Positions 1 through 39,464 of a stretch of DNA of 39,503 nucleotides are shown here, one piece after another. Numbering within the stretch: position 1 is the first letter of the stretch; every line of letters starts with the position of its first letter. A model generated the notes under the pieces. That model was given only the letters and a program-made list of their open reading frames with translations, made no database searches and had not been told where the DNA came from. Origin of the DNA: a virus (taxonomy: Duplodnaviria; Heunggongvirae; Uroviricota; Caudoviricetes); the IMG/VR virus record IMGVR_UViG_2718218309_000001; one strand, written 5' to 3'. The translations under genes and the position numbers were made by a program.

Positions 1-1749
1 ATGACAGTGGCAAATTATAATTCTCTTGTCCAGAAAACTTTCTGCGAAAATGCAATTCGTTCCGTTGTCATGATTGATGACGATTTTCTGACGTATTCTG
101 AATCAATCAGGGCGTTGAATAACGAAGTTGATTTAGACTACAACAAAATTGACTCATCTAAACGAGCCGCTACTCTTGAGAGCTTTTTTCAATCTAAAAA
201 TATGATTTGTGATGTTGACAATGGTTCTGTTAATTTCGATGTGGATCGGATTAGAAAATCAGATCTTATTATTGTAGATTATCATCTTGATAATAATGCA
301 CCTGATAAAACACTTAAACCATTACAAGATTTGAAAGACTCCGATCATTTAAATATGATTGTAATATATACTAGAGAGAATTTAGAAACGGTTTGGATGC
401 AGATATCATCGACTCTCAAAGGTGCTCTGGATATCAACAGCTTGATCATTGACTACGATAATGAAGATGTCCAAAGTTATTGGGAAGACGTTGTATTACC
501 GAACTTAAATGATAATGGTAATAAAGCTCTCACAAGAGATGAAACAATAGCCTATATTAAAGACAGTAAGCCTTGTAGAAGAATTAAAAGATTAATACAT
601 GATGATGCTGTGTTGGAGGATCAAAAGGATAAAAACTTCATTGCAAAAATGATTGCAGAATATGCTGTGTCTAGAAATGCAATTATTTCTAGCAACACAT
701 CTGGCAATGTCATTCGGGGTGATGAAAGCGGAGTAAAATGGATTCAATGTGGTAATATCTTTGTCTCCCTATTTCATAAGGTTCAAGATGATCATGAAAA
801 CGATGGAGATAGGATTTGGCAAACTCTCAATGATTCTCTCATTGAATGGAAACCATCTTATTATCAGTTAATAAAATCTGAAATTCAGAATGCAATCGAA
901 GCTGAGGCTTTATCTTTTGTAAATCATTTGGCTAACGATCATTACGGTCAAGCTGCGTGGTTAAATGAGATATTAAAATCAGACTCGCCTGATATTAGAT
1001 GTAGAAATATTGACTTTGTATTTGGTAATTTATCAGAAGAGCTTTATCAAAGACTTAAAAATAATAATACGCTGGATGAATTTATCAAAAGTGTTTTTGA
1101 TAGCTATTCAAATGAATACGCTAACAGCGGAGTTGCTGCATTGCTCCAATATTGCTCTTCAAAAATGGATCTGCCATCAAATAATGATACTTATCACGAA
1201 ATGTATCATGCTTTAAATATGAATTTGTCTTCAAAGAATTTTGAAGATGGTCATATTTCTACTGGCACTATTTTCTTTGATACAGAGTCGAACAAATGGT
1301 ATTTATGTGTATCTGCGGCATGTGATTTGGTTCCTACTCAGGGTAACGACCCTCACCATGTAAGATTAAGTCCGCACAGGCTCATTAAAGTTCTGGAGCT
1401 TTTTAACGCCAGTCAGAGTAAAGCATTGCCATTTGCTGAACATTCGAAATATATATATGTAATGCATAAAAATCAAAGAAAATATCTCTCTATTTTCGAA
1501 GGGGATAAAACGCTTCCTGTTGTTGATTATATGGTGGTGTTGAATCATGGAACAACAGTTGATGGCGAAGAAAAAAATATTATTTCTGCCGTGTTTTTAA
1601 GTAATATGGATGGCAACGTGCAAAATGTTCCTGTCCGACTCAAACTTAAATCTCAACTGAGAACTGGTTATGCAGAAAGATATCAGGCTATAGCGTCTCA
1701 GTATAGCTCAAGGATTGGTGTGGATTATGTATCAATGATGCTACCATAA
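1..1749 (+). CDS. Hypothetical 582-aa protein; N-terminal alpha/beta domain with acidic motifs (VVMIDDD, DLIIVDYHLD, MIVIYT, STLKG) reminiscent of receiver/PIN/Toprim-type folds; no P-loop seen
   Basis: Long uninterrupted ORF from ATG at position 1; AT-rich codon usage unlike the prophage core; alternating hydrophobic strands ending in Asp residues. Domain assignment is inference only. Confidence 0.6.
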   Translation: MTVANYNSLVQKTFCENAIRSVVMIDDDFLTYSESIRALNNEVDLDYNKIDSSKRAATLESFFQSKNMICDVDNGSVNFDVDRIRKSDLIIVDYHLDNNAPDKTLKPLQDLKDSDHLNMIVIYTRENLETVWMQISSTLKGALDINSLIIDYDNEDVQSYWEDVVLPNLNDNGNKALTRDETIAYIKDSKPCRRIKRLIHDDAVLEDQKDKNFIAKMIAEYAVSRNAIISSNTSGNVIRGDESGVKWIQCGNIFVSLFHKVQDDHENDGDRIWQTLNDSLIEWKPSYYQLIKSEIQNAIEAEALSFVNHLANDHYGQAAWLNEILKSDSPDIRCRNIDFVFGNLSEELYQRLKNNNTLDEFIKSVFDSYSNEYANSGVAALLQYCSSKMDLPSNNDTYHEMYHALNMNLSSKNFEDGHISTGTIFFDTESNKWYLCVSAACDLVPTQGNDPHHVRLSPHRLIKVLELFNASQSKALPFAEHSKYIYVMHKNQRKYLSIFEGDKTLPVVDYMVVLNHGTTVDGEEKNIISAVFLSNMDGNVQNVPVRLKLKSQLRTGYAERYQAIASQYSSRIGVDYVSMMLP

Positions 1750-1761
1750 TTATTATATTTT

Positions 1762-1789
1762 AGGCGTGGTGATTTTTTTCGCCATGCCT
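1762..1789. terminator. Hairpin (aggcgtgg / ccatgcct stem) followed by T-rich tract between convergent genes
   Basis: Inverted repeat 1762-1769 and 1782-1789 with about 12-nt loop, flanked by T runs; sits between the 3' ends of ORF 1-1749 (+) and ORF 1820-2236 (-). Confidence 0.3.
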
Positions 1790-1819
1790 ATTTTATATTT
1801 ATCATCACAATGATGTTGT

Positions 1820-2236
1820 TTATTTTTGTTTAAGTCTTCTAAGCTTCATGCATTCTAATGAGAATAATAATAGAGTTGTGCTGTATATAAAGCCAGAGTT
1901 AGTTAATAACTTTAAATTTAATGCTTCAGGATTTTCACTGAGAAAGTGAAAGGCATAAACTAAGTATACAGCTAAAGTAGCCGTTCCAATTGTTGGTCCA
2001 ATATCGCCTTGATCATGAGGTTCAAGGTTTACATTGAACTTGAAGATTAGCCATTCAAATCCCCAAGTAAAAAAAACAACTAATATCATGGCTGCGAATA
2101 ATTTCGCGATGTTATCTGCTGATGGATTCATCAGAACAGATTGTTTCTGAAAAAATTCACAAAGTGAGAGTCCGAAAAAAATAAAAAAAAGTGGTCTGGA
2201 ACTAAATTTTTCAAAAACTTTGAATAGGGTTTCCAT
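1820..2236 (-). CDS. Hypothetical small multi-pass membrane protein (138 aa, about 4 hydrophobic segments)
   Basis: ORF with several 18-22 aa hydrophobic stretches (FFIFFGLSL, AAMILVVFFTWGF, GTATLAVYLVYAF, IYSTTLLLFSL); immediately downstream of and co-directional with the P4-type integrase. Confidence 0.45.
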   Translation of the reverse strand: METLFKVFEKFSSRPLFFIFFGLSLCEFFQKQSVLMNPSADNIAKLFAAMILVVFFTWGFEWLIFKFNVNLEPHDQGDIGPTIGTATLAVYLVYAFHFLSENPEALNLKLLTNSGFIYSTTLLLFSLECMKLRRLKQK

Positions 2237-2274
2237 TTTCTTTACCTTCAGGATTATATTAGCTATTCTGATAC

Positions 2275-3546
2275 TTAGGCTACCAGAGCATTTGATCTTT
2301 GAGCTTGAACGTAATCACTCCACCATTGCATCAAACTCTGTCGCTCTATCAGATATTCTGCACGATTGTATGCTGCGATAATTTCATCTTTTTTCGAGTG
2401 GGCAAGCGCTGCCTCAAGAACTTCAGCTCTGAATTTACCAGACTCCTCTGCCGCTGTTCGTGCAATAGAACGCATACCGTGAGCTACAAGCTCGCCTCCG
2501 AACCCCATTCGGATGATAGCTGCGTTGGCTGTTTGTTCATGCATATGATTAAGAGGCGCTTTTATGCTGGGGAAAACCCATTCTCTATGCCCACTTATTG
2601 ATTTCATTAATTCAAGGATGCGCAAAGCTTCTTTACTCAAAGGAACTTTGTGAAGCTTTTTCATTTTCATGAAATCAGCAGGAATGTTCCAAATGCTGTT
2701 GGTTGTATCAATATCAGACCACCTTGCGCGAACGGCTTCACCCGGACGAACCCATGTCAACAATTGCCATTCAATTAGCATACGTGTTTCCAACCGGATT
2801 GACGCATTCGTCAAAGATTCCATAAACCTTGGCAATTCGCTTGGGGGAAGGGCAGGCATATTTTGCTTTTTTGGTTTACTGAATCTTTGACCAAGGTTGT
2901 CAGCCGGGTTGAACTCAATAAGTTCTTCAGTAGCTGCCCACCGGAAGATTTCATTCAGACGTGAAATGATACGGCGTAGAGTTTCCAATACGCCTCGTTG
3001 CTCAATAGGATCAAGGTGTTGTTTTAAGAGCTTAGGTCGGATCTCATTGATAGGGACATTACCCAGACCGGGAAAGACATTTCTCTCTAAGCTGCGCCAG
3101 ATGTCTGCTGCATGGTCTTGTGAGATACCTGATGTCTTTACCTTCTCATCTAACCATTTCCGCGCTACGGCTTGGAGAGTGTGCTCAGTAGCACTCTTTA
3201 ATGCCTTCGCCTTATCGTTGTTATGGATTTGGGGATCAACACCATTTGCCAGAAAGGAGAGATATTCATCACGTAAGGCTCTGGCTCTTGCAAGGGTAAG
3301 GTGAGGATATGTCCCAAGGCTCATTTTGGTTCTTTTCTTGCTCACTGGTACTGCATACCTGAAATACCAATTTTTCTTGCCTCCTTTCGCCAAAGGAGCG
3401 ATTCGTAGAATCAGACCATCACCGTCAAACAAGTTGATTTCTTTATCGGCTGGCTTGGTGCTTTTGATTTCAGTGTCAGTGAGCTTCTTAGCGATTTTTG
3501 CCATTTTGGGACCCTCGGTTTTTGGACCCTTCTTAGTGGGTCCCAT
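2275..3546 (-). CDS. int: P4-family tyrosine integrase (CP4-57 IntA-like); true start probably the internal Met (MAKIAKKLTDTEIK, near 3504)
   Basis: N-terminal TDTEIKSTKP...DGDGL...WYFRY motif block typical of P4-type integrases; C-terminal catalytic region with R...H..R..Y-type residues (HGMRS, AHS...YNRAEY); adjacent to att copy. Confidence 0.9.
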   Translation of the reverse strand: MGPTKKGPKTEGPKMAKIAKKLTDTEIKSTKPADKEINLFDGDGLILRIAPLAKGGKKNWYFRYAVPVSKKRTKMSLGTYPHLTLARARALRDEYLSFLANGVDPQIHNNDKAKALKSATEHTLQAVARKWLDEKVKTSGISQDHAADIWRSLERNVFPGLGNVPINEIRPKLLKQHLDPIEQRGVLETLRRIISRLNEIFRWAATEELIEFNPADNLGQRFSKPKKQNMPALPPSELPRFMESLTNASIRLETRMLIEWQLLTWVRPGEAVRARWSDIDTTNSIWNIPADFMKMKKLHKVPLSKEALRILELMKSISGHREWVFPSIKAPLNHMHEQTANAAIIRMGFGGELVAHGMRSIARTAAEESGKFRAEVLEAALAHSKKDEIIAAYNRAEYLIERQSLMQWWSDYVQAQRSNALVA

Positions 3547-3669
3547 TCAGGGTGCCATAACTCGTAGTTCTCAGCAATTCTCACTGGACGACAATAGACG
3601 TAAAAAAGCCCGCAGAGCTTGTGCTGTGTGGGCTTAGTAGACTTCATTGAACTTCAAACAACTAAAAAG

Positions 3670-3714
3670 TGGTGGAGCTGGCGGGAGTTGAACCCGCGTC
3701 CGAAATTCCTACAT
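3670..3714. repeat. 45-bp direct repeat of the ssrA 3' end (att core copy; junction between prophage and P4-like island)
   Basis: tggtggagctggcgggagttgaacccgcgtccgaaattcctacat is identical to 39102-39146 (the 3' end of ssrA); sequences diverge immediately outside. Confidence 0.9.
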
Positions 3715-3827
3715 ACCATTTTTATCATAGTAAAAACAGTAATTTACGTTTAAAAACAATGTATTAGTATTATTTTGTATTTGTCCGTTTTACGCATTTT
3801 TAATGCTCTGTCGCCAAATTGCCGCCA

Positions 3828-5021
3828 TCACTTCTTGTCTTCGATAGAACCGTATTCAAGAAGGTTGTCCATACACTTCTCTAACCTATAGAAATCTGTC
3901 AAAGGATAGAGATTGACAATGTTGTCATCAAAACTTTGCATACCTGATAAACGTTCTTTCCTTCTTAAGAATCTTGAGGCAGACCTAACACCATCATCCT
4001 CACTTGGTTCACAGGAATAATCTAGAGTTTTTAGTACCTGCCATGAAACGGGGGGAGTAAGCTTGAACATTTTTACTAGCTTAGGACAGAAATCTTTTGT
4101 TATGGTTTGCTGATATGTAACTTTAGGTGGAAGAACAACGTTAATAGATTTATCACCATGGTTTGTTTTAATCATTCTTGTCGATCTGTATGCAATTCCG
4201 ACAATGTTTGATTTATTTCTACGACTAATCCATTGCATTAATAAATTTGGGATTATATATTCCTGAGTGAAAGATGTGCTGCCGTTAATCTTTGCAAAAC
4301 TACAAGCGTAAATTAGTGGCATTAAACAAATGTAAGACATCTTTGTGATGTATGACATTTTGTCATTATCAATCTTACCATAGAAACGTGAGTAGAGGAT
4401 TTCCGAAGTGAAATCTAATATTTTGGAATTTTCTTCACTGGATATAAAAGAAGATATATATAACTTATCAAAATCAGGTTTATCCATTTCAAGCCAACAT
4501 ACATATAGGGATGAGCCTAAATATAAACAGGGTAGACCTGCAACCGAGTATCTTTGGGCATTTACCAAGTGCCTTTTAGAGAATGGTATATGAAAGATTT
4601 CATTTCTATTTTTTACTGCTGTATCAGATTTTCTAACCCTGAATAAAGGTCTTGAAGAATTGCAAATATTCTCTAAGGGGATTGATATTTTCTGGATGTA
4701 GTTAGCTGTGAATCGATCAGAAAATGTTCTGTCGAAAGTATCATATGAGGACTTGATATCACCTGATAAAAAATATTCCAAAGAGCTTACAACGCCAAAG
4801 TATATTCTTGTTATTCTATCAAGTTTAGAACTCAATCTACGAGATAATTCATTGTCATTATCTTCTATGTAGTCATTTAAAGTATTAAAGTAAATTTCAC
4901 ATTTATTTTTAAAATCATTAATAATGTCGGTCTTAACAGTGAAAGGGAGTTTTAAATCTCCCGTCTTTATAAGGCTTTCAAATAAAAAATTAAAATCATC
5001 ATGTATATTTTCGGTTTCCAT
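3828..5021 (-). CDS. RES-domain-like protein (397 aa), candidate NAD+-targeting toxin/effector
   Basis: Motif block PLFRVR...QRYSVAGLPCLYLGSSLYVCWLE (aa about 125-179) matches the RES signature (Arg ... G.P.LYL.SS ... E) known from RES-Xre toxins; very AT-rich; second gene of an operon downstream of int. Confidence 0.55.
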   Translation of the reverse strand: METENIHDDFNFLFESLIKTGDLKLPFTVKTDIINDFKNKCEIYFNTLNDYIEDNDNELSRRLSSKLDRITRIYFGVVSSLEYFLSGDIKSSYDTFDRTFSDRFTANYIQKISIPLENICNSSRPLFRVRKSDTAVKNRNEIFHIPFSKRHLVNAQRYSVAGLPCLYLGSSLYVCWLEMDKPDFDKLYISSFISSEENSKILDFTSEILYSRFYGKIDNDKMSYITKMSYICLMPLIYACSFAKINGSTSFTQEYIIPNLLMQWISRRNKSNIVGIAYRSTRMIKTNHGDKSINVVLPPKVTYQQTITKDFCPKLVKMFKLTPPVSWQVLKTLDYSCEPSEDDGVRSASRFLRRKERLSGMQSFDDNIVNLYPLTDFYRLEKCMDNLLEYGSIEDKK

Positions 5022-5075
5022 TGTTATTATCCTTTTGAGTAATTTAATGAATATAACGGGTTTTTCGTGACAGCA

Positions 5076-6203
5076 TCATTCCAAATGATCTGCCGCCGCT
5101 TTGCCGCCAAGGATTTTCATATAAGGAGGCTTAGCATAAACCTCCTTGGTCTGCTGGAAAGTGGTTTTGGAGAATCTTCTTTCTTCTGATTGTAAATATT
5201 TTAGCAGACGTTGATATTTGTTTTCTAATATTTGACTATTCCCAGCCAGATCGTAAATATCGCAGGTTATGTTATAAAGCCAATAAACTACGGCTTTGAT
5301 TTCAGGCTCTGAGAAATAGGTTGTGTTAAATACATATTCATTATTATGATTGTAAATGTAGGAGTGTTTCCTTTGTATAGTGTTAACCTTAAGTAGCTTC
5401 ATAAGGTTGATAATTTTAAGGTCAATAGAAATTAAAGAAATTATCTCTGACTTCAAATCACCCTTTTTGATACCAATAATTTCTTTATCAAGTTCATTCC
5501 AGGCATTTATGATTTTTTGCGTGAATTTTGGGGAAGGGCTATAAATTGCACCAGTATTTTGTGAAGATTGAAATAAATTATTATAAAGCTTATGAGGAAA
5601 TACAATTTTCACTTCGTAAGTATTTACTTTTTCACTTGATTCTATATAAGCATGGCTAGCCACTTCAGCAGCCACATGCCTTGTTCGATCAGTCTGCGTG
5701 GGGATATATTCAAGAACCAAAGTAGGGAATGAACTAATCGTTTCGATAAATAGTTTTAAATGAGAGTAATAAGCGTCTGCATTGTTTTTAACTTTAGCTG
5801 ATTGTATCTGTGATTCAGTTTGAATGGTTCTATGAATATTATTTACTATTGAAGCCAGTGGCACTGATGAAGCTAATAATAGCAACGGAAGTTTACTAAT
5901 ATTAAGAAAATTTGCAAACCCGTCGGTTGTCAGTTGTAAACTATGATCTCTCCAAACCCAGCAACCGAATAAAATAAAATAGTAAAATGGTAATAAGATA
6001 GAAGCTATAAACAAAGGTTGTTTGAATAAATTATTGTCATTTAACTCAAACCACCCGTAAAAATAAAACAGTCCTATTGTTATAAATAATGAGGTTATTG
6101 CCACCGTTAAGAACATTACCTCAAAACCATAATATATTGTAAAAGTATTTGCAACTATGGATAGTAAGAGCAAAAAAGTTAAAGTGATAATTTTATTTTT
6201 CAT
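5076..6203 (-). CDS. Hypothetical membrane protein (375 aa): about 4 N-terminal TM helices plus about 280-aa soluble C-terminal domain
   Basis: Hydrophobic segments in the first 90 aa; start ATG (6203-6201) overlaps the int stop codon (TGA 6202-6200), i.e. ATGA translational coupling with int; AT-rich. Confidence 0.6.
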   Translation of the reverse strand: MKNKIITLTFLLLLSIVANTFTIYYGFEVMFLTVAITSLFITIGLFYFYGWFELNDNNLFKQPLFIASILLPFYYFILFGCWVWRDHSLQLTTDGFANFLNISKLPLLLLASSVPLASIVNNIHRTIQTESQIQSAKVKNNADAYYSHLKLFIETISSFPTLVLEYIPTQTDRTRHVAAEVASHAYIESSEKVNTYEVKIVFPHKLYNNLFQSSQNTGAIYSPSPKFTQKIINAWNELDKEIIGIKKGDLKSEIISLISIDLKIINLMKLLKVNTIQRKHSYIYNHNNEYVFNTTYFSEPEIKAVVYWLYNITCDIYDLAGNSQILENKYQRLLKYLQSEERRFSKTTFQQTKEVYAKPPYMKILGGKAAADHLE

Positions 6204-7219
6204 AAGTTAATCATATTCAACGGGTTTTTGGTAACTGCATCTTCTAAATGATCTGGGGAGAAATGTGCATAGATCATTGTCATCTTAATATCGGCATGCC
6301 CAAGAATTTCTTTAAGAACAAGTATATTACCGCCATTCATCATGAAATAGCTTGCGAAGGTATGCCGCAGCACGTGGGTACATTGGCCCTCTGGCAAGTC
6401 GATACCAGCTCGTTTCACTGCGCGCTCAAAAGCTTTTCTGCATGGCGTGAATAGTTTCCCTCTGTTTTTGGGGAGTTCATCATACAGCTCCTGAGATATC
6501 GGTATGGTACGGTTTTTCTTGCCTTTAGTTTTGGTATAGGTGATCCGGTATTTAGTTAACTGATGGCCTTGAAGGTTTTCTGCTTCACTCCATCGCGCGC
6601 CGGTAGCCAGGCATATTTTTGCAATCATCAATAGGCTGGAGCTATGAGAATCTGCGCAAGCATCAAGCAGGCGTTTAATTTCTTCCGTGGTCAGGAACGC
6701 CAGCTCACCTTCTGCGATTTTAAATGTTGGCAAACCGGCGAGTGGATTGGGTGCTGACCAATGGCCCAACTTTTTCAGTGTGCCAAACACGGATGATAGG
6801 TTGCGTTGTTCAAGGTTTACCGTGCGAGGCTTAACTGGCGACATAAGCACGCCATCTTCATTTCGCACCTCACCTTTTAGCCGTGCTTCGCGGTATTTCG
6901 TAAAGTCGCCAGCGGTTAACTCTGAGGCAACAGGATCACCCAGGCCGTTACAAATAATGTTGAGTTTTGCCATCAGGCGTTTGGGGTCAGCAAGTGTCTG
7001 CCCGTAGAGTGAATGCCATTGCTCAATCACTTCTGACAAACGCCGCCGATCTTCTTTCTCACCCAACCACGGTTTTTTGTTTACTTCGTCCATGGTGTGA
7101 TTTTCGAATGCTATGGCCTCACCTTTCGTCGCAAATTGTTTGCGCACACGCTTGCCGTCGCGCCCGTTAGGGTAGCACTCACATAACCATTTACCGTTCG
7201 GCTGTTTTCTGATGGTCAT
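6200..7219 (-). CDS. int: P2/186-type tyrosine integrase
   Basis: 339-aa protein with N-terminal MTIRKQPNGKWLCE... and C-terminal catalytic residues (R...HVLRHTFAS...YAHF), as in P2 Int; located next to the repressor gene as in P2/186. Confidence 0.9.
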   Translation of the reverse strand: MTIRKQPNGKWLCECYPNGRDGKRVRKQFATKGEAIAFENHTMDEVNKKPWLGEKEDRRRLSEVIEQWHSLYGQTLADPKRLMAKLNIICNGLGDPVASELTAGDFTKYREARLKGEVRNEDGVLMSPVKPRTVNLEQRNLSSVFGTLKKLGHWSAPNPLAGLPTFKIAEGELAFLTTEEIKRLLDACADSHSSSLLMIAKICLATGARWSEAENLQGHQLTKYRITYTKTKGKKNRTIPISQELYDELPKNRGKLFTPCRKAFERAVKRAGIDLPEGQCTHVLRHTFASYFMMNGGNILVLKEILGHADIKMTMIYAHFSPDHLEDAVTKNPLNMINL

Positions 7220-7222
7220 AAG

Positions 7223-7873
7223 TTAGAGGCTCTTGATTACTTTGGCTGCTCGTCCTACAACTTCCACATCATCTACAGAGCATTCAAATGAAGTGTCATC
7301 TTGGTGAACTACTATTTTGTTTCCGGGTATACGTGCAATTTTGACGATGTTTTTCATACCGTCGATGTCTATGAGCCAAATTCCGTTACTAAGCTGTTTT
7401 GCTGATGTGTCAACGATGTAATTGCCATCGCTAGCTTTGACGTACAAACAGTATTCGGCTTTTCCGGGTATCAAACTCTGATCAAGGAAAACATCTTCCA
7501 GCTCTTCGAGCGTTCCGTTCTCAATGGTTGCCTGCCGTACTGATGGGATAACAATCTTTGAAAGGGGGCGAACTGTAGGTGAACTCTCGTTTTTGAACTT
7601 ATTTTTTTCTTCTGTTTGAGGATACATTTCCCCTTGGCCCGTTGTCAGCCAAAGCAGAGAAATACCTGTTTCAAGGGCACATTGAATAACCCAGTCAGCG
7701 GGAAAGCTATCACGTAACATCCTGTTTGCCATGGTACTTTTTGATGCTTCGAGATGTTCAACTAACGCTATTTGAGTGTTGAAACCATAGGCGGTCATCA
7801 GCCTTTTGATGGTCTCCCTTCCTCCCGTATTTGCACCTGTATTGATCTTCAAGATGAACTCTCCATTTGACAA
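7223..7873 (-). CDS. cI: Phage 186 CI-like immunity repressor
   Basis: Resembles 186 CI (AYGF..., CALETG..LWLTTGQGE, C-terminal VDDVEVVGR); divergent from apl across an operator-containing intergenic region. Start codon uncertain (track start is a non-ATG codon). Confidence 0.8.
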   Translation of the reverse strand: MSNGEFILKINTGANTGGRETIKRLMTAYGFNTQIALVEHLEASKSTMANRMLRDSFPADWVIQCALETGISLLWLTTGQGEMYPQTEEKNKFKNESSPTVRPLSKIVIPSVRQATIENGTLEELEDVFLDQSLIPGKAEYCLYVKASDGNYIVDTSAKQLSNGIWLIDIDGMKNIVKIARIPGNKIVVHQDDTSFECSVDDVEVVGRAAKVIKSL

Positions 7874-39101: not shown

Positions 39102-39146
39102 TGGTGGAGCTGGCGGGAGTTGAACCCGCGTCCGAAATTCCTACAT
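39102..39146. repeat. 45-bp att core within the ssrA 3' end (direct repeat partner of 3670-3714)
   Basis: Identical 45-mer; this copy is part of the intact tmRNA gene. Confidence 0.9.
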
Positions 39147-39464
39147 CCTCGGTACTACATGCTTAGTCAGTCTTTACATTCGCTTGCCAGCTGCGGACGG
39201 ACACGCCACTAACAAACTAGCCTGATTAAGTTTTAACGCTTCAACCCCAGGCAGGGCTTCCACGCGATCTCTTTTGGGTTTGACCTCTCTTGATCCCCGT
39301 CCTAAGAGCGGAGGCTAGGGAGAGAGGGCTCTAAGCAGGTTATTAAGCTGCTAAAGCGTAGTTTTCGTCGTTTGCGACTATTTTTTGCGGCTTTTTACGA
39401 GGCCAACCGCCCCTCGGCATGCACCTTGGGTTTCGCAAATCCCGTCGAATCCAGAATCAGCCCC
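39102..39464 (-). ncRNA. ssrA: tmRNA (transfer-messenger RNA, SsrA), 363 nt
   Basis: Reverse complement reads GGGGCTGATTCTGGATTCGACGGG...GCAAACGACGAAAACTACGCTTTAGCAGCTTAA (tag peptide ANDENYALAA)...GGTTCAACTCCCGCCAGCTCCACCA, matching the E. coli tmRNA sequence. Confidence 0.97.

Follow-up and report, generated by a model that had tools for sequence, protein, structure and literature searches.

A divergent RES-domain protein and a four-helix membrane protein in a probable cassette stack between int and attL of a P2-family prophage

Cargo between int and attL

The 39,503-nt stretch of viral DNA analysed here (IMG/VR record IMGVR_UViG_2718218309_000001; hereafter, the window) contains a prophage in which two genes lie between the integrase gene, int, and the left attachment site, attL. 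The gene next to attL encodes a 397-aa protein of RES type (A1), and the gene next to int encodes a 375-aa membrane protein (A2). An earlier note on this DNA had read the pair as a toxin and its membrane-bound partner, forming one abortive-infection or toxin-immunity module. In the loci that we surveyed, A1 and A2 are very probably two independent single-gene cassettes stacked in an int-att hotspot.

The prophage, of about 35 kb, is bounded by two identical 45-bp copies of the ssrA 3' end (positions 3670-3714 and 39102-39146; repeat search, with no matches expected by chance), and because the copies lie at these two positions, the cargo is inside the prophage, between int and attL. The window DNA just inside attL matches the attP of Fels-2, SopEPhi and RE2010, and the cargo occupies the slot of a Fels-2/186-like prophage of the P2 family, with ssrA as its integration site. 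The descriptive part of the earlier note proved sound. The two open reading frames (ORFs) have exactly the coordinates that it gave (Table 1), and the 2.4 kb between int and attL are indeed AT-rich, with a GC content of 0.29-0.35 across 3.8-6.2 kb versus 0.43-0.56 in the flanking prophage backbone. Its remark that int normally adjoins att holds for 25 of 66 informative close relatives, in which the slot is empty and the int stop codon lies 134 bp from the att core. The int ORF ends in ...AACTTATGA, and the 375-aa ORF begins at the ATG of that sequence; this ATGA overlap, which the note had also pointed out, recurs as a start offset of -3 in 24 of the 58 related loci with int directly upstream. 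Both ORFs are real, intact genes, 96-98% identical to widespread intact homologues.

A lysogenic cI-int transcript is known in P2 and 186. The CI gene of the window is the probable start of a lysogenic transcript that would also carry int and the cargo. The terminator scan found no minus-strand terminator-like site at the int/A2 or A2/A1 junction, which fits expression on such a transcript, and both cassettes are probably co-transcribed with cI-int in the lysogen. Apart from the hairpin beyond att (Table 1), one further minus-strand terminator-like site was found in the cargo, at 4541-4527 inside the A1 ORF. A promoter scan of the region yielded fewer sites than were found in shuffled sequence.

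Table 1. Features at the cargo slot and at the right end of the prophage (window positions)
Feature	Position	Strand	Basis
Terminator-like hairpin, the sole one downstream of the cargo; beyond att, in host DNA beside the ssrA remnant	3606..3620	-	Terminator scan
attL core, 45-bp duplicate of the ssrA (transfer-messenger RNA, tmRNA) 3' end; left end of the prophage	3670..3714	.	Repeat search; partial Rfam tmRNA match at 3670-3739
attP arm, right boundary of the cargo slot; starts TGGCGGCAATTTGGCGACAGAGC (3827..3805)	3715..3827	-	Alignment to relatives
A1 cassette, 397-aa stand-alone RES-domain protein (divergent, predicted)	3828..5021	-	ORF, profiles, AlphaFold 2 (AF2) model, alignments
Scar: last ~73 nt of an int gene and native int-A1 junction	5018..5092	-	Alignment to prophages with A1 only
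attP-arm motif, truncated second copy (TGGCGGCAAAGCGGCGGCAGA), at the 3' end of the A2 ORF	5084..5109	-	Alignment to L186
A2 cassette, 375-aa membrane protein with four transmembrane (TM) helices	5076..6203	-	ORF, Kyte-Doolittle, AF2 model, family alignment
int, P2/186-type tyrosine integrase; stop codon overlaps the A2 start (ATGA)	6200..7219	-	Pfam Int_N 4e-28, Phage_integrase 4e-24
CI-type repressor, upstream of int on the same strand	7223..7873	-	Pfam Phage_CI_repr, Phage_CI_C
ssrA (tmRNA) gene carrying the attR core (39102-39146)	39102..39464	-	ARAGORN, repeat search

Occurrence of the two genes and the scar between them

Hidden Markov models of the A1 and A2 families, together with the int and CI proteins of the window, were run over 185 loci fetched through either family. 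A second, unbiased sample was made up of the 80 prophages whose int is closest to that of the window (93-97% identity), and about 230 loci in all were surveyed for the two genes. The viral-contig samples contain near-duplicate prophages, and the counts given here are of loci, not of independent events. The order CI-int-cargo-att was conserved in more than 130 loci. In 76 of 80 viral loci, some of them from relatives 95-97% identical to the window gene, A1 came no more than 60 nt after int, and a homologue with 75% nucleotide identity stood alone between int and att in E. coli NZ_LR882997. A2 followed int directly in 58 of 65 loci; none of the 65, which include relatives 94-95% identical, had a RES gene after it, and 29 of them extend at least 1.3 kb downstream. 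Both genes occurred together in five of the ~185 loci fetched through either family and in none of the 80 int-anchored prophages, where the slot was empty in 25, held A2 only in 20, A1 only in 14 and other cargo in 7, and met a contig edge in the remaining 14.

Between A2 and A1 the window retains a recombination scar. On the minus strand, window positions 5130..5084 are identical at 43 of 47 positions to the 3' end of A2 and the start of the attP arm in a locus with A2 only (L186), and positions 5090..5018 correspond to the int 3' end and A1 start of two prophages with A1 only (65/73 identical in L200 and 70/79 in L106). The two tracts overlap at the microhomology CAGAnCATT. Of the attP arm, the scar retains the first ~26 nt, joined to the final ~73 nt from a second int gene. 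One extra T in this int remnant creates the TGA stop codon of A2, whose product ends in ...AAADHLE, with DHLE derived from the int motif PDHLEDAV. As read from these alignments, the 54-nt "intergenic spacer" is the fossil of another int gene and not an operon junction. This scar of int 3' end and attP arm between A2 and A1 shows that the cassettes were stacked secondarily. An independent A2+A1 stack (L123/L124) has an int-like remnant between its genes as well.

In the simplest history that we infer, two related prophages would have stood in tandem at ssrA, or a recombination intermediate would have held both cassettes, and a microhomology-mediated deletion would then have removed the DNA between a point within one int gene and the attP arm belonging to the other. 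The scar is a base-level example of cassette build-up in a prophage hotspot; the available excerpts of PMC9122126, PMC9519451 and PMC13586616 contained no stacking documented by a scar.

In this phage lineage the slot, bounded by the int stop codon on one side and a conserved attP arm on the other, is either empty or occupied by one exchangeable AT-rich cassette. The arm (~135 bp; consensus start TGGCGGCAAnnTGGCGrCAGAGC) is common to all relatives whatever their cargo, and aligns among loci whose slot is empty or contains A2 alone, A1 alone, a dCTP-deaminase gene or a 514-aa cargo. The dCTP-deaminase gene, a defence gene encoding 584 aa, was found in L192 (6024-7778) and L195 (PADLOC dCTPase 5e-141; Pfam dCMP_cyt_deam_1) on the strand opposite to int, and the int of these loci is 94% identical to that of the window. 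The cargo between the conserved int 3' end and the attP arm is thus variable and includes a known defence gene, as expected of an int-att hotspot.

Exchangeable AT-rich cassettes at a fixed position, conserved phage boundaries and known defence genes likewise characterize the cargo hotspots of P2-like prophages in three reports (Rousset 2022, PMC9122126; Vassallo 2022, PMC9519451; a Moura de Sousa-type survey of 2026, PMC13586616). The two classical P2 hotspots lie elsewhere, at the old/tin and Z/fun positions; in September 2026 the int-att position was listed for P2-like prophages as a minor defence hotspot, with 3% of the P2 defence systems (PMC13586616). The earlier note had seen no described system here. 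This holds for the A1 and A2 families, which are not among the recognised systems; it does not hold for the slot, a reported hotspot, or for stand-alone RES proteins, which are described as aRES (see below).

The attP-arm motif (window 3805-3827 and 5084-5109) has the appearance of two direct TGGCGRCA half-sites, possibly Int arm sites. The peptide G-D-x-L/M-A-A-E, with which many A1 and A2 homologues end, is apparently attP-arm DNA read through. Other occupants of the slot were a 514-aa ORF (L203, 6014-7558) and two stacks, one of a 350-aa membrane protein and an A2-like gene (L189, 6026-8263) and one of A1 and a 317-aa ORF (L241, 6025-8223); the unannotated cargos of these three loci had no match in Pfam or PADLOC.

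The RES-type protein and the membrane protein

In the AF2 model of A1 (pLDDT 83.9, pTM 0.86), an N-terminal helical domain (residues 1-112) is followed by a RES core (~125-335) and C-terminal helices (343-387). The motif LFRVR ... QRYSVAGLPCLYLGSSLYVCWLE, which the earlier note had singled out, does occur in A1, and the family is most strongly conserved there. The family is large and old: a word-indexed search returned 281 homologues, and an exhaustive HMMER search gave 2,686 clusters at 50% identity, 961 of them with E <= 1e-30. Family loci were found in Enterobacteriaceae, Aeromonas, Bacteroidales, Acidobacteria, Myxococcota, Paenibacillus and Clostridia.

Four lines of evidence bear on the nature of the core. 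The Pfam RES profile (PF08808) was the most frequent weak match in the family (19 of 40 members, and 27 of 74 in a second set); the remote members L028 and L036 scored above its threshold (25.4 and 25.6 bits), and other remote members reached 20-22.5 bits, the matches spanning nearly the full profile (positions 3-137). A Foldseek search of the A1 model against PDB had MbcT (6fkg) as its sole match (E 3.6e-3, probability 1.00, TM score 0.54 by target; next match at E > 1), and the modelled fold is RES/ADP-ribosyltransferase (ART)-like. An hhalign comparison of the A1 family profile with three aRES proteins, members of a group of stand-alone RES-domain defence proteins described in January 2026 (Osterman et al., bioRxiv 10.64898/2026.01.28.702374), gave a probability of 95.3% (E 2.3e-8, 208 columns); the sequences were the three experimentally validated proteins of Table S4 of that paper, and they themselves match PF08808 at 1.7e-14. 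In this alignment, A1 residues R128, R130, R157, Y167, E178 and S280 correspond to aRES R182, R184, R215, Y225, E236 and S334, which are exactly the six residues that the aRES authors turned to alanine, and active-site mutations abolish aRES defence (Osterman et al.).

Across phyla there is little or no variation at R130, R157, Y167 and E178, and R128 and S280 vary only slightly (at least 90% conserved). The motif spacing R..R..Y..E..S of A1 also agrees with that of R27, R47, Y58 and E69 of MbcT (sequence checked against 6fkg), with Y167 and E178 aligned to Y58 and E69; R27, R47 and Y58 are essential in MbcT. Because of the remote Pfam matches, the MbcT fold match, the aRES alignment and the conserved residues, A1 is best described as a divergent RES-domain protein with a predicted intact active site.

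Several results weigh against this identification. A1 itself reached only 14 bits with PF08808 (E 0.052, residues 141-179 only), short of the gathering score of 23.2, and none of 40 close relatives exceeded the threshold (best E 0.0059). An hhalign comparison of the A1 family with MbcT alone was weak (probability 2.3%), though the expected motif was aligned, and profile searches of PDB sequences with the A1 family found no solved RES structure and only chance helical-bundle matches. PADLOC (2023) and NCBIfam had no match for A1 or A2, and a literature search for the RefSeq accessions returned nothing. The RES domain claimed in the earlier note is thus supported by remote homology, fold and residues, but not by a significant Pfam match of the window protein, and the family is invisible to Pfam- and PADLOC-based annotation.

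Within the close A1 family, the RES core is 70-73% identical to that of the window protein versus 38-44% for the terminal parts. Such a contrast is in keeping with a conserved enzyme whose regulatory or sensor parts evolve fast, and the N- and C-terminal helical parts are probably a regulatory or sensor module.

In aRES, infection triggers the depletion of NAD+ to ADP-ribose-1''-phosphate (ADPR-1''P) with growth arrest, and an N-terminal HEPN_RES_NTD1 domain (PF18870) is required by the definition of its authors (Osterman et al.). Like aRES, A1 is encoded by a single gene without antitoxin, its neighbour in the window being a separately acquired cassette, and its 397 aa fall within the range of 300-600 aa. 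It likewise has an N-terminal non-catalytic domain followed by a homologous RES domain in which the six mutated residues are identical, and it occurs in enterobacterial mobile and defence contexts. In contrast to the three aRES proteins, all of which contain PF18870, none of 114 A1-family members does (hmmscan; 0/40 and 0/74). A1 also has no Zn-ribbon, has an extra C-terminal helical segment, and occupies a prophage int-att slot instead of a chromosomal defence island; its RES core lies below the Pfam threshold, and an annotation-based search for aRES probably misses it. We considered the N-terminal domain of A1 as a divergent PF18870 and rejected this (hhalign of the two N-terminal domains, probability 0.2%). 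From its sequence, A1 is aRES-like, yet outside aRES as its authors define it by PF18870.

With the toxins that belong to RES-Xre toxin-antitoxin (TA) modules (MbcT-MbcA, Res-Xre, NatT-NatR, ParST), A1 shares the RES/ART-like fold predicted by the model. Unlike them, it is twice as long, has flanking helical domains, and has no adjoining Xre/COG5642 antitoxin gene; its neighbours are A2 and int upstream and att downstream, as the earlier note had observed. Searches of ORFs, Rfam and tandem repeats near A1 found no antitoxin gene, RNA family or repeat array that could act as an antitoxin. Since there is no Xre gene, A1 is not a RES-Xre TA module. An HTH partner was seen only in distant clostridial relatives. 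An Xre-type HTH_3 ORF lies directly upstream of a clostridial A1-family gene (~310 aa) in L032 (5412-5666) and L033 (5756-6007), overlapping the RES gene by 4 nt in the latter, and in L034 (5416-6660) the RES protein carries an N-terminal HTH fusion. These HTH_3 genes and the fusion are hints of shared ancestry between stand-alone A1 proteins and TA-type RES toxins.

Homologues of A1 are encoded by the att-proximal ORF of Salmonella phages RE2010, SopEPhi and SE479_1PHIH2 and E. coli phage Cartapus (records H32-H38), and YopC of B. subtilis SPbeta is a homologue with 28% identity (E 3e-30). Identity to A1 ranges over 28-49% among YopC and the first ORFs of RE2010, SopEPhi and Cartapus. The Cartapus protein ("putative RES protein") and the RefSeq SPbeta homologue already bear a RES label. 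Elsewhere, an A1-family gene stands alone between housekeeping genes (L009), and in Klebsiella sp. R390 (L011, 5266-8123) an A1-like gene lies between the CI repressor gene and int, not after int, at a different insertion point. In a metagenome-assembled genome of Eubacteriales (L035, 3418-6789), an SMODS cyclase and an S_4TM effector, a CBASS-type pair, directly precede an A1-like gene in a defence island. A relationship of A2 to this S_4TM effector was rejected (probability 0.1%).

A2 has hydrophobic segments at ~5-23, 29-47, 65-83 and 102-120 (Kyte-Doolittle), which agree with helices of its AF2 model (pLDDT 82.6), in line with the four TM helices proposed earlier. The word-indexed search found 104 homologues. 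Across the family, identity is 58% in residues 50-160, which comprise TM3, TM4 and a juxtamembrane helix, and 14-22% elsewhere; the conserved stretch contains ISKLPLLxLASSVPLAxIVNNIHRTIQTE, and the hypervariable parts are the N-terminal helices and a 215-residue C-terminal alpha/beta domain (161-375), which by the positive-inside rule would be cytoplasmic. A2 matches a PHROG family of unknown function. A2 combines a conserved membrane module with a soluble domain that varies, and defence genes use the same slot; these features hint that it could be a single-gene exclusion or abortive-infection protein. PD-T7-4, which "overlaps an integrase", was considered for both A1 and A2 and rejected, as it is a ~220-aa Zn-finger-HEPN protein.

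Alternative explanations and proposed functions

A1 and A2 might form one system, with A2 as an immunity factor, antitoxin, anchor or sensor for a RES toxin. The genes are adjacent on one strand, 54 nt apart, no Xre gene is present, and the two families stand side by side in three apparently independent lineages (the window with L001 and L003, L123/L124, and a Ferrimonas chromosomal islet with the opposite order). However, most loci by far contain only one of the two, as do relatives whose genes are 94-97% identical to those of the window; the int and attP-arm scar separates the pair, the spacer being an int remnant, and the slot holds other stacks too (L189, L241). The conserved co-occurrence that an obligate A1-A2 pair would entail is not seen in these loci, and the partner role that the earlier note gave to the membrane protein is very improbable. 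The recurrent adjacency, which does count against fully independent cassettes, may reflect some functional cooperation, the more radical reading; it is explained more simply by one slot shared between two common cargos. The Ferrimonas islet (L013, 5273-8850) consists of a 200-aa ORF, the A1-like and A2-like genes and a 94-aa ORF between an aldehyde dehydrogenase gene and lysS/prfB; with no P2-like genes within 6 kb, it is the only co-occurrence of the two families outside a recognisable prophage. It is scarcely credible that the cargo is decaying, non-functional AT-rich DNA. The scar does record past illegitimate recombination, and the ORF is split in 2 of 80 RES loci (L147 and L171), but neither window ORF is broken, the catalytic residues do not vary across phyla, and widespread intact homologues share 96-98% identity with the window genes.

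The characterised RES toxins (MbcT, Res and NatT) belong to TA or persistence modules, and distant clostridial A1 relatives have an HTH_3 ORF upstream (L032 and L033) or a fused HTH (L034), so that A1 could be an addiction, persistence or prophage-stabilising toxin of RES-Xre TA type instead of a defence effector. We regard this as improbable, since the enterobacterial prophage clade has neither an antitoxin gene nor an RNA candidate, the position is a defence hotspot, and the stand-alone architecture resembles that of aRES, which defends against phages. A2, in turn, might merely ride in the slot and serve envelope lysogenic conversion, transport or signalling. Its lack of matches in PADLOC, Pfam, NCBIfam, PDB and BFVD and the PHROG family of unknown function would be consistent with this; against it, the slot is one that defence genes also use, the combination of a conserved membrane core and a hypervariable soluble domain is typical of arms-race proteins, and the family is found almost only at the int-att of P2-like prophages (58/65 loci). 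Such a role for A2 is unlikely, if less so than the addiction role for A1.

Stacked cassettes with an aRES-like A1 and an exclusion-type A2 are the best overall explanation, and one that we consider fairly probable. By analogy, A1 is somewhat more probably than otherwise an NAD+-cleaving defence enzyme. MbcT acts by NAD+ phosphorolysis (PMC6436930). By homology to MbcT and aRES, A1 would most likely be an abortive-infection enzyme that splits NAD+ phosphorolytically into nicotinamide and ADPR-1''-phosphate. In the lysogen, auto-inhibition would keep it inactive until another phage infects and activates it, leading to arrest of the cell and a block of phage replication, with its fast-evolving terminal helical parts probably acting as regulator or sensor. 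A2 would most likely be an independent inner-membrane protein, a second single-gene factor of exclusion or abortive infection, and both cassettes would probably be carried on the cI-int transcript of the lysogen. A defence role, as the earlier note had supposed, is plausible from the occupancy of the slot and the analogy with aRES. The analysis demonstrates the gene structure, the slot, the separateness of the two cassettes, the scar, the RES homology and the conservation of the residues; the enzyme activity, the trigger, the anti-phage role, the function of A2 and the co-transcription are all inferred.

Other points count against this explanation. The aRES precedent may fail to carry over to the trigger and regulation of A1, whose N-terminal domain is not PF18870, and any activity, toxicity or phage protection of the two families is putative. 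A2 had no match in Pfam, PADLOC or NCBIfam, and a Foldseek search of its model against PDB and BFVD gave nothing below E 0.1; a defence or exclusion role is suggested by its position and variation pattern, and is possible but not quite probable.

If the A1 family works like aRES, defence by NAD+ phosphorolysis would be far more widespread than current annotation shows, and P2-family prophages would encode it where it is transcribed together with repressor and integrase. The N-terminal domain of A1, being unrelated to that of aRES, would then offer a natural comparison for the triggers of stand-alone RES enzymes. The A2 family makes a clean candidate for a single-gene exclusion system of a new kind, given its conserved membrane core, hypervariable soluble domain and slot shared with dCTP-deaminase. 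A bolder joint claim is that both cassettes are anti-phage systems, the A1 family (~2,700 clusters at 50% identity, in many phyla) being a second architectural class of aRES with a different sensor and the A2 family a new membrane-anchored single-gene system whose hypervariable cytoplasmic domain senses phage; taken as a whole, this seems rather doubtful.

Window positions 3602-3679, in host DNA beside the ssrA remnant, gave a partial, sub-threshold match to the Rfam small RNA IsrM (53 bits versus a gathering score of 376), which is probably only shared ssrA-flank sequence. Just outside attL, on its left side, lies a P4-type integrase gene (2275-3546; Arm-DNA-bind_3) with AT-rich cargo of its own, namely genes for a 582-aa protein with Response_reg_2 (PF19192; 1-1749; phrog_7659; weak PADLOC C3a59 match) and a 138-aa membrane protein (1820-2236; phrog_6556). 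Positions 1-3546 resemble a defence hotspot in a P4-like satellite that shares the ssrA site, in tandem, with its P2-like helper, and a P4-type int lies just past the cargo in ~45 related loci.

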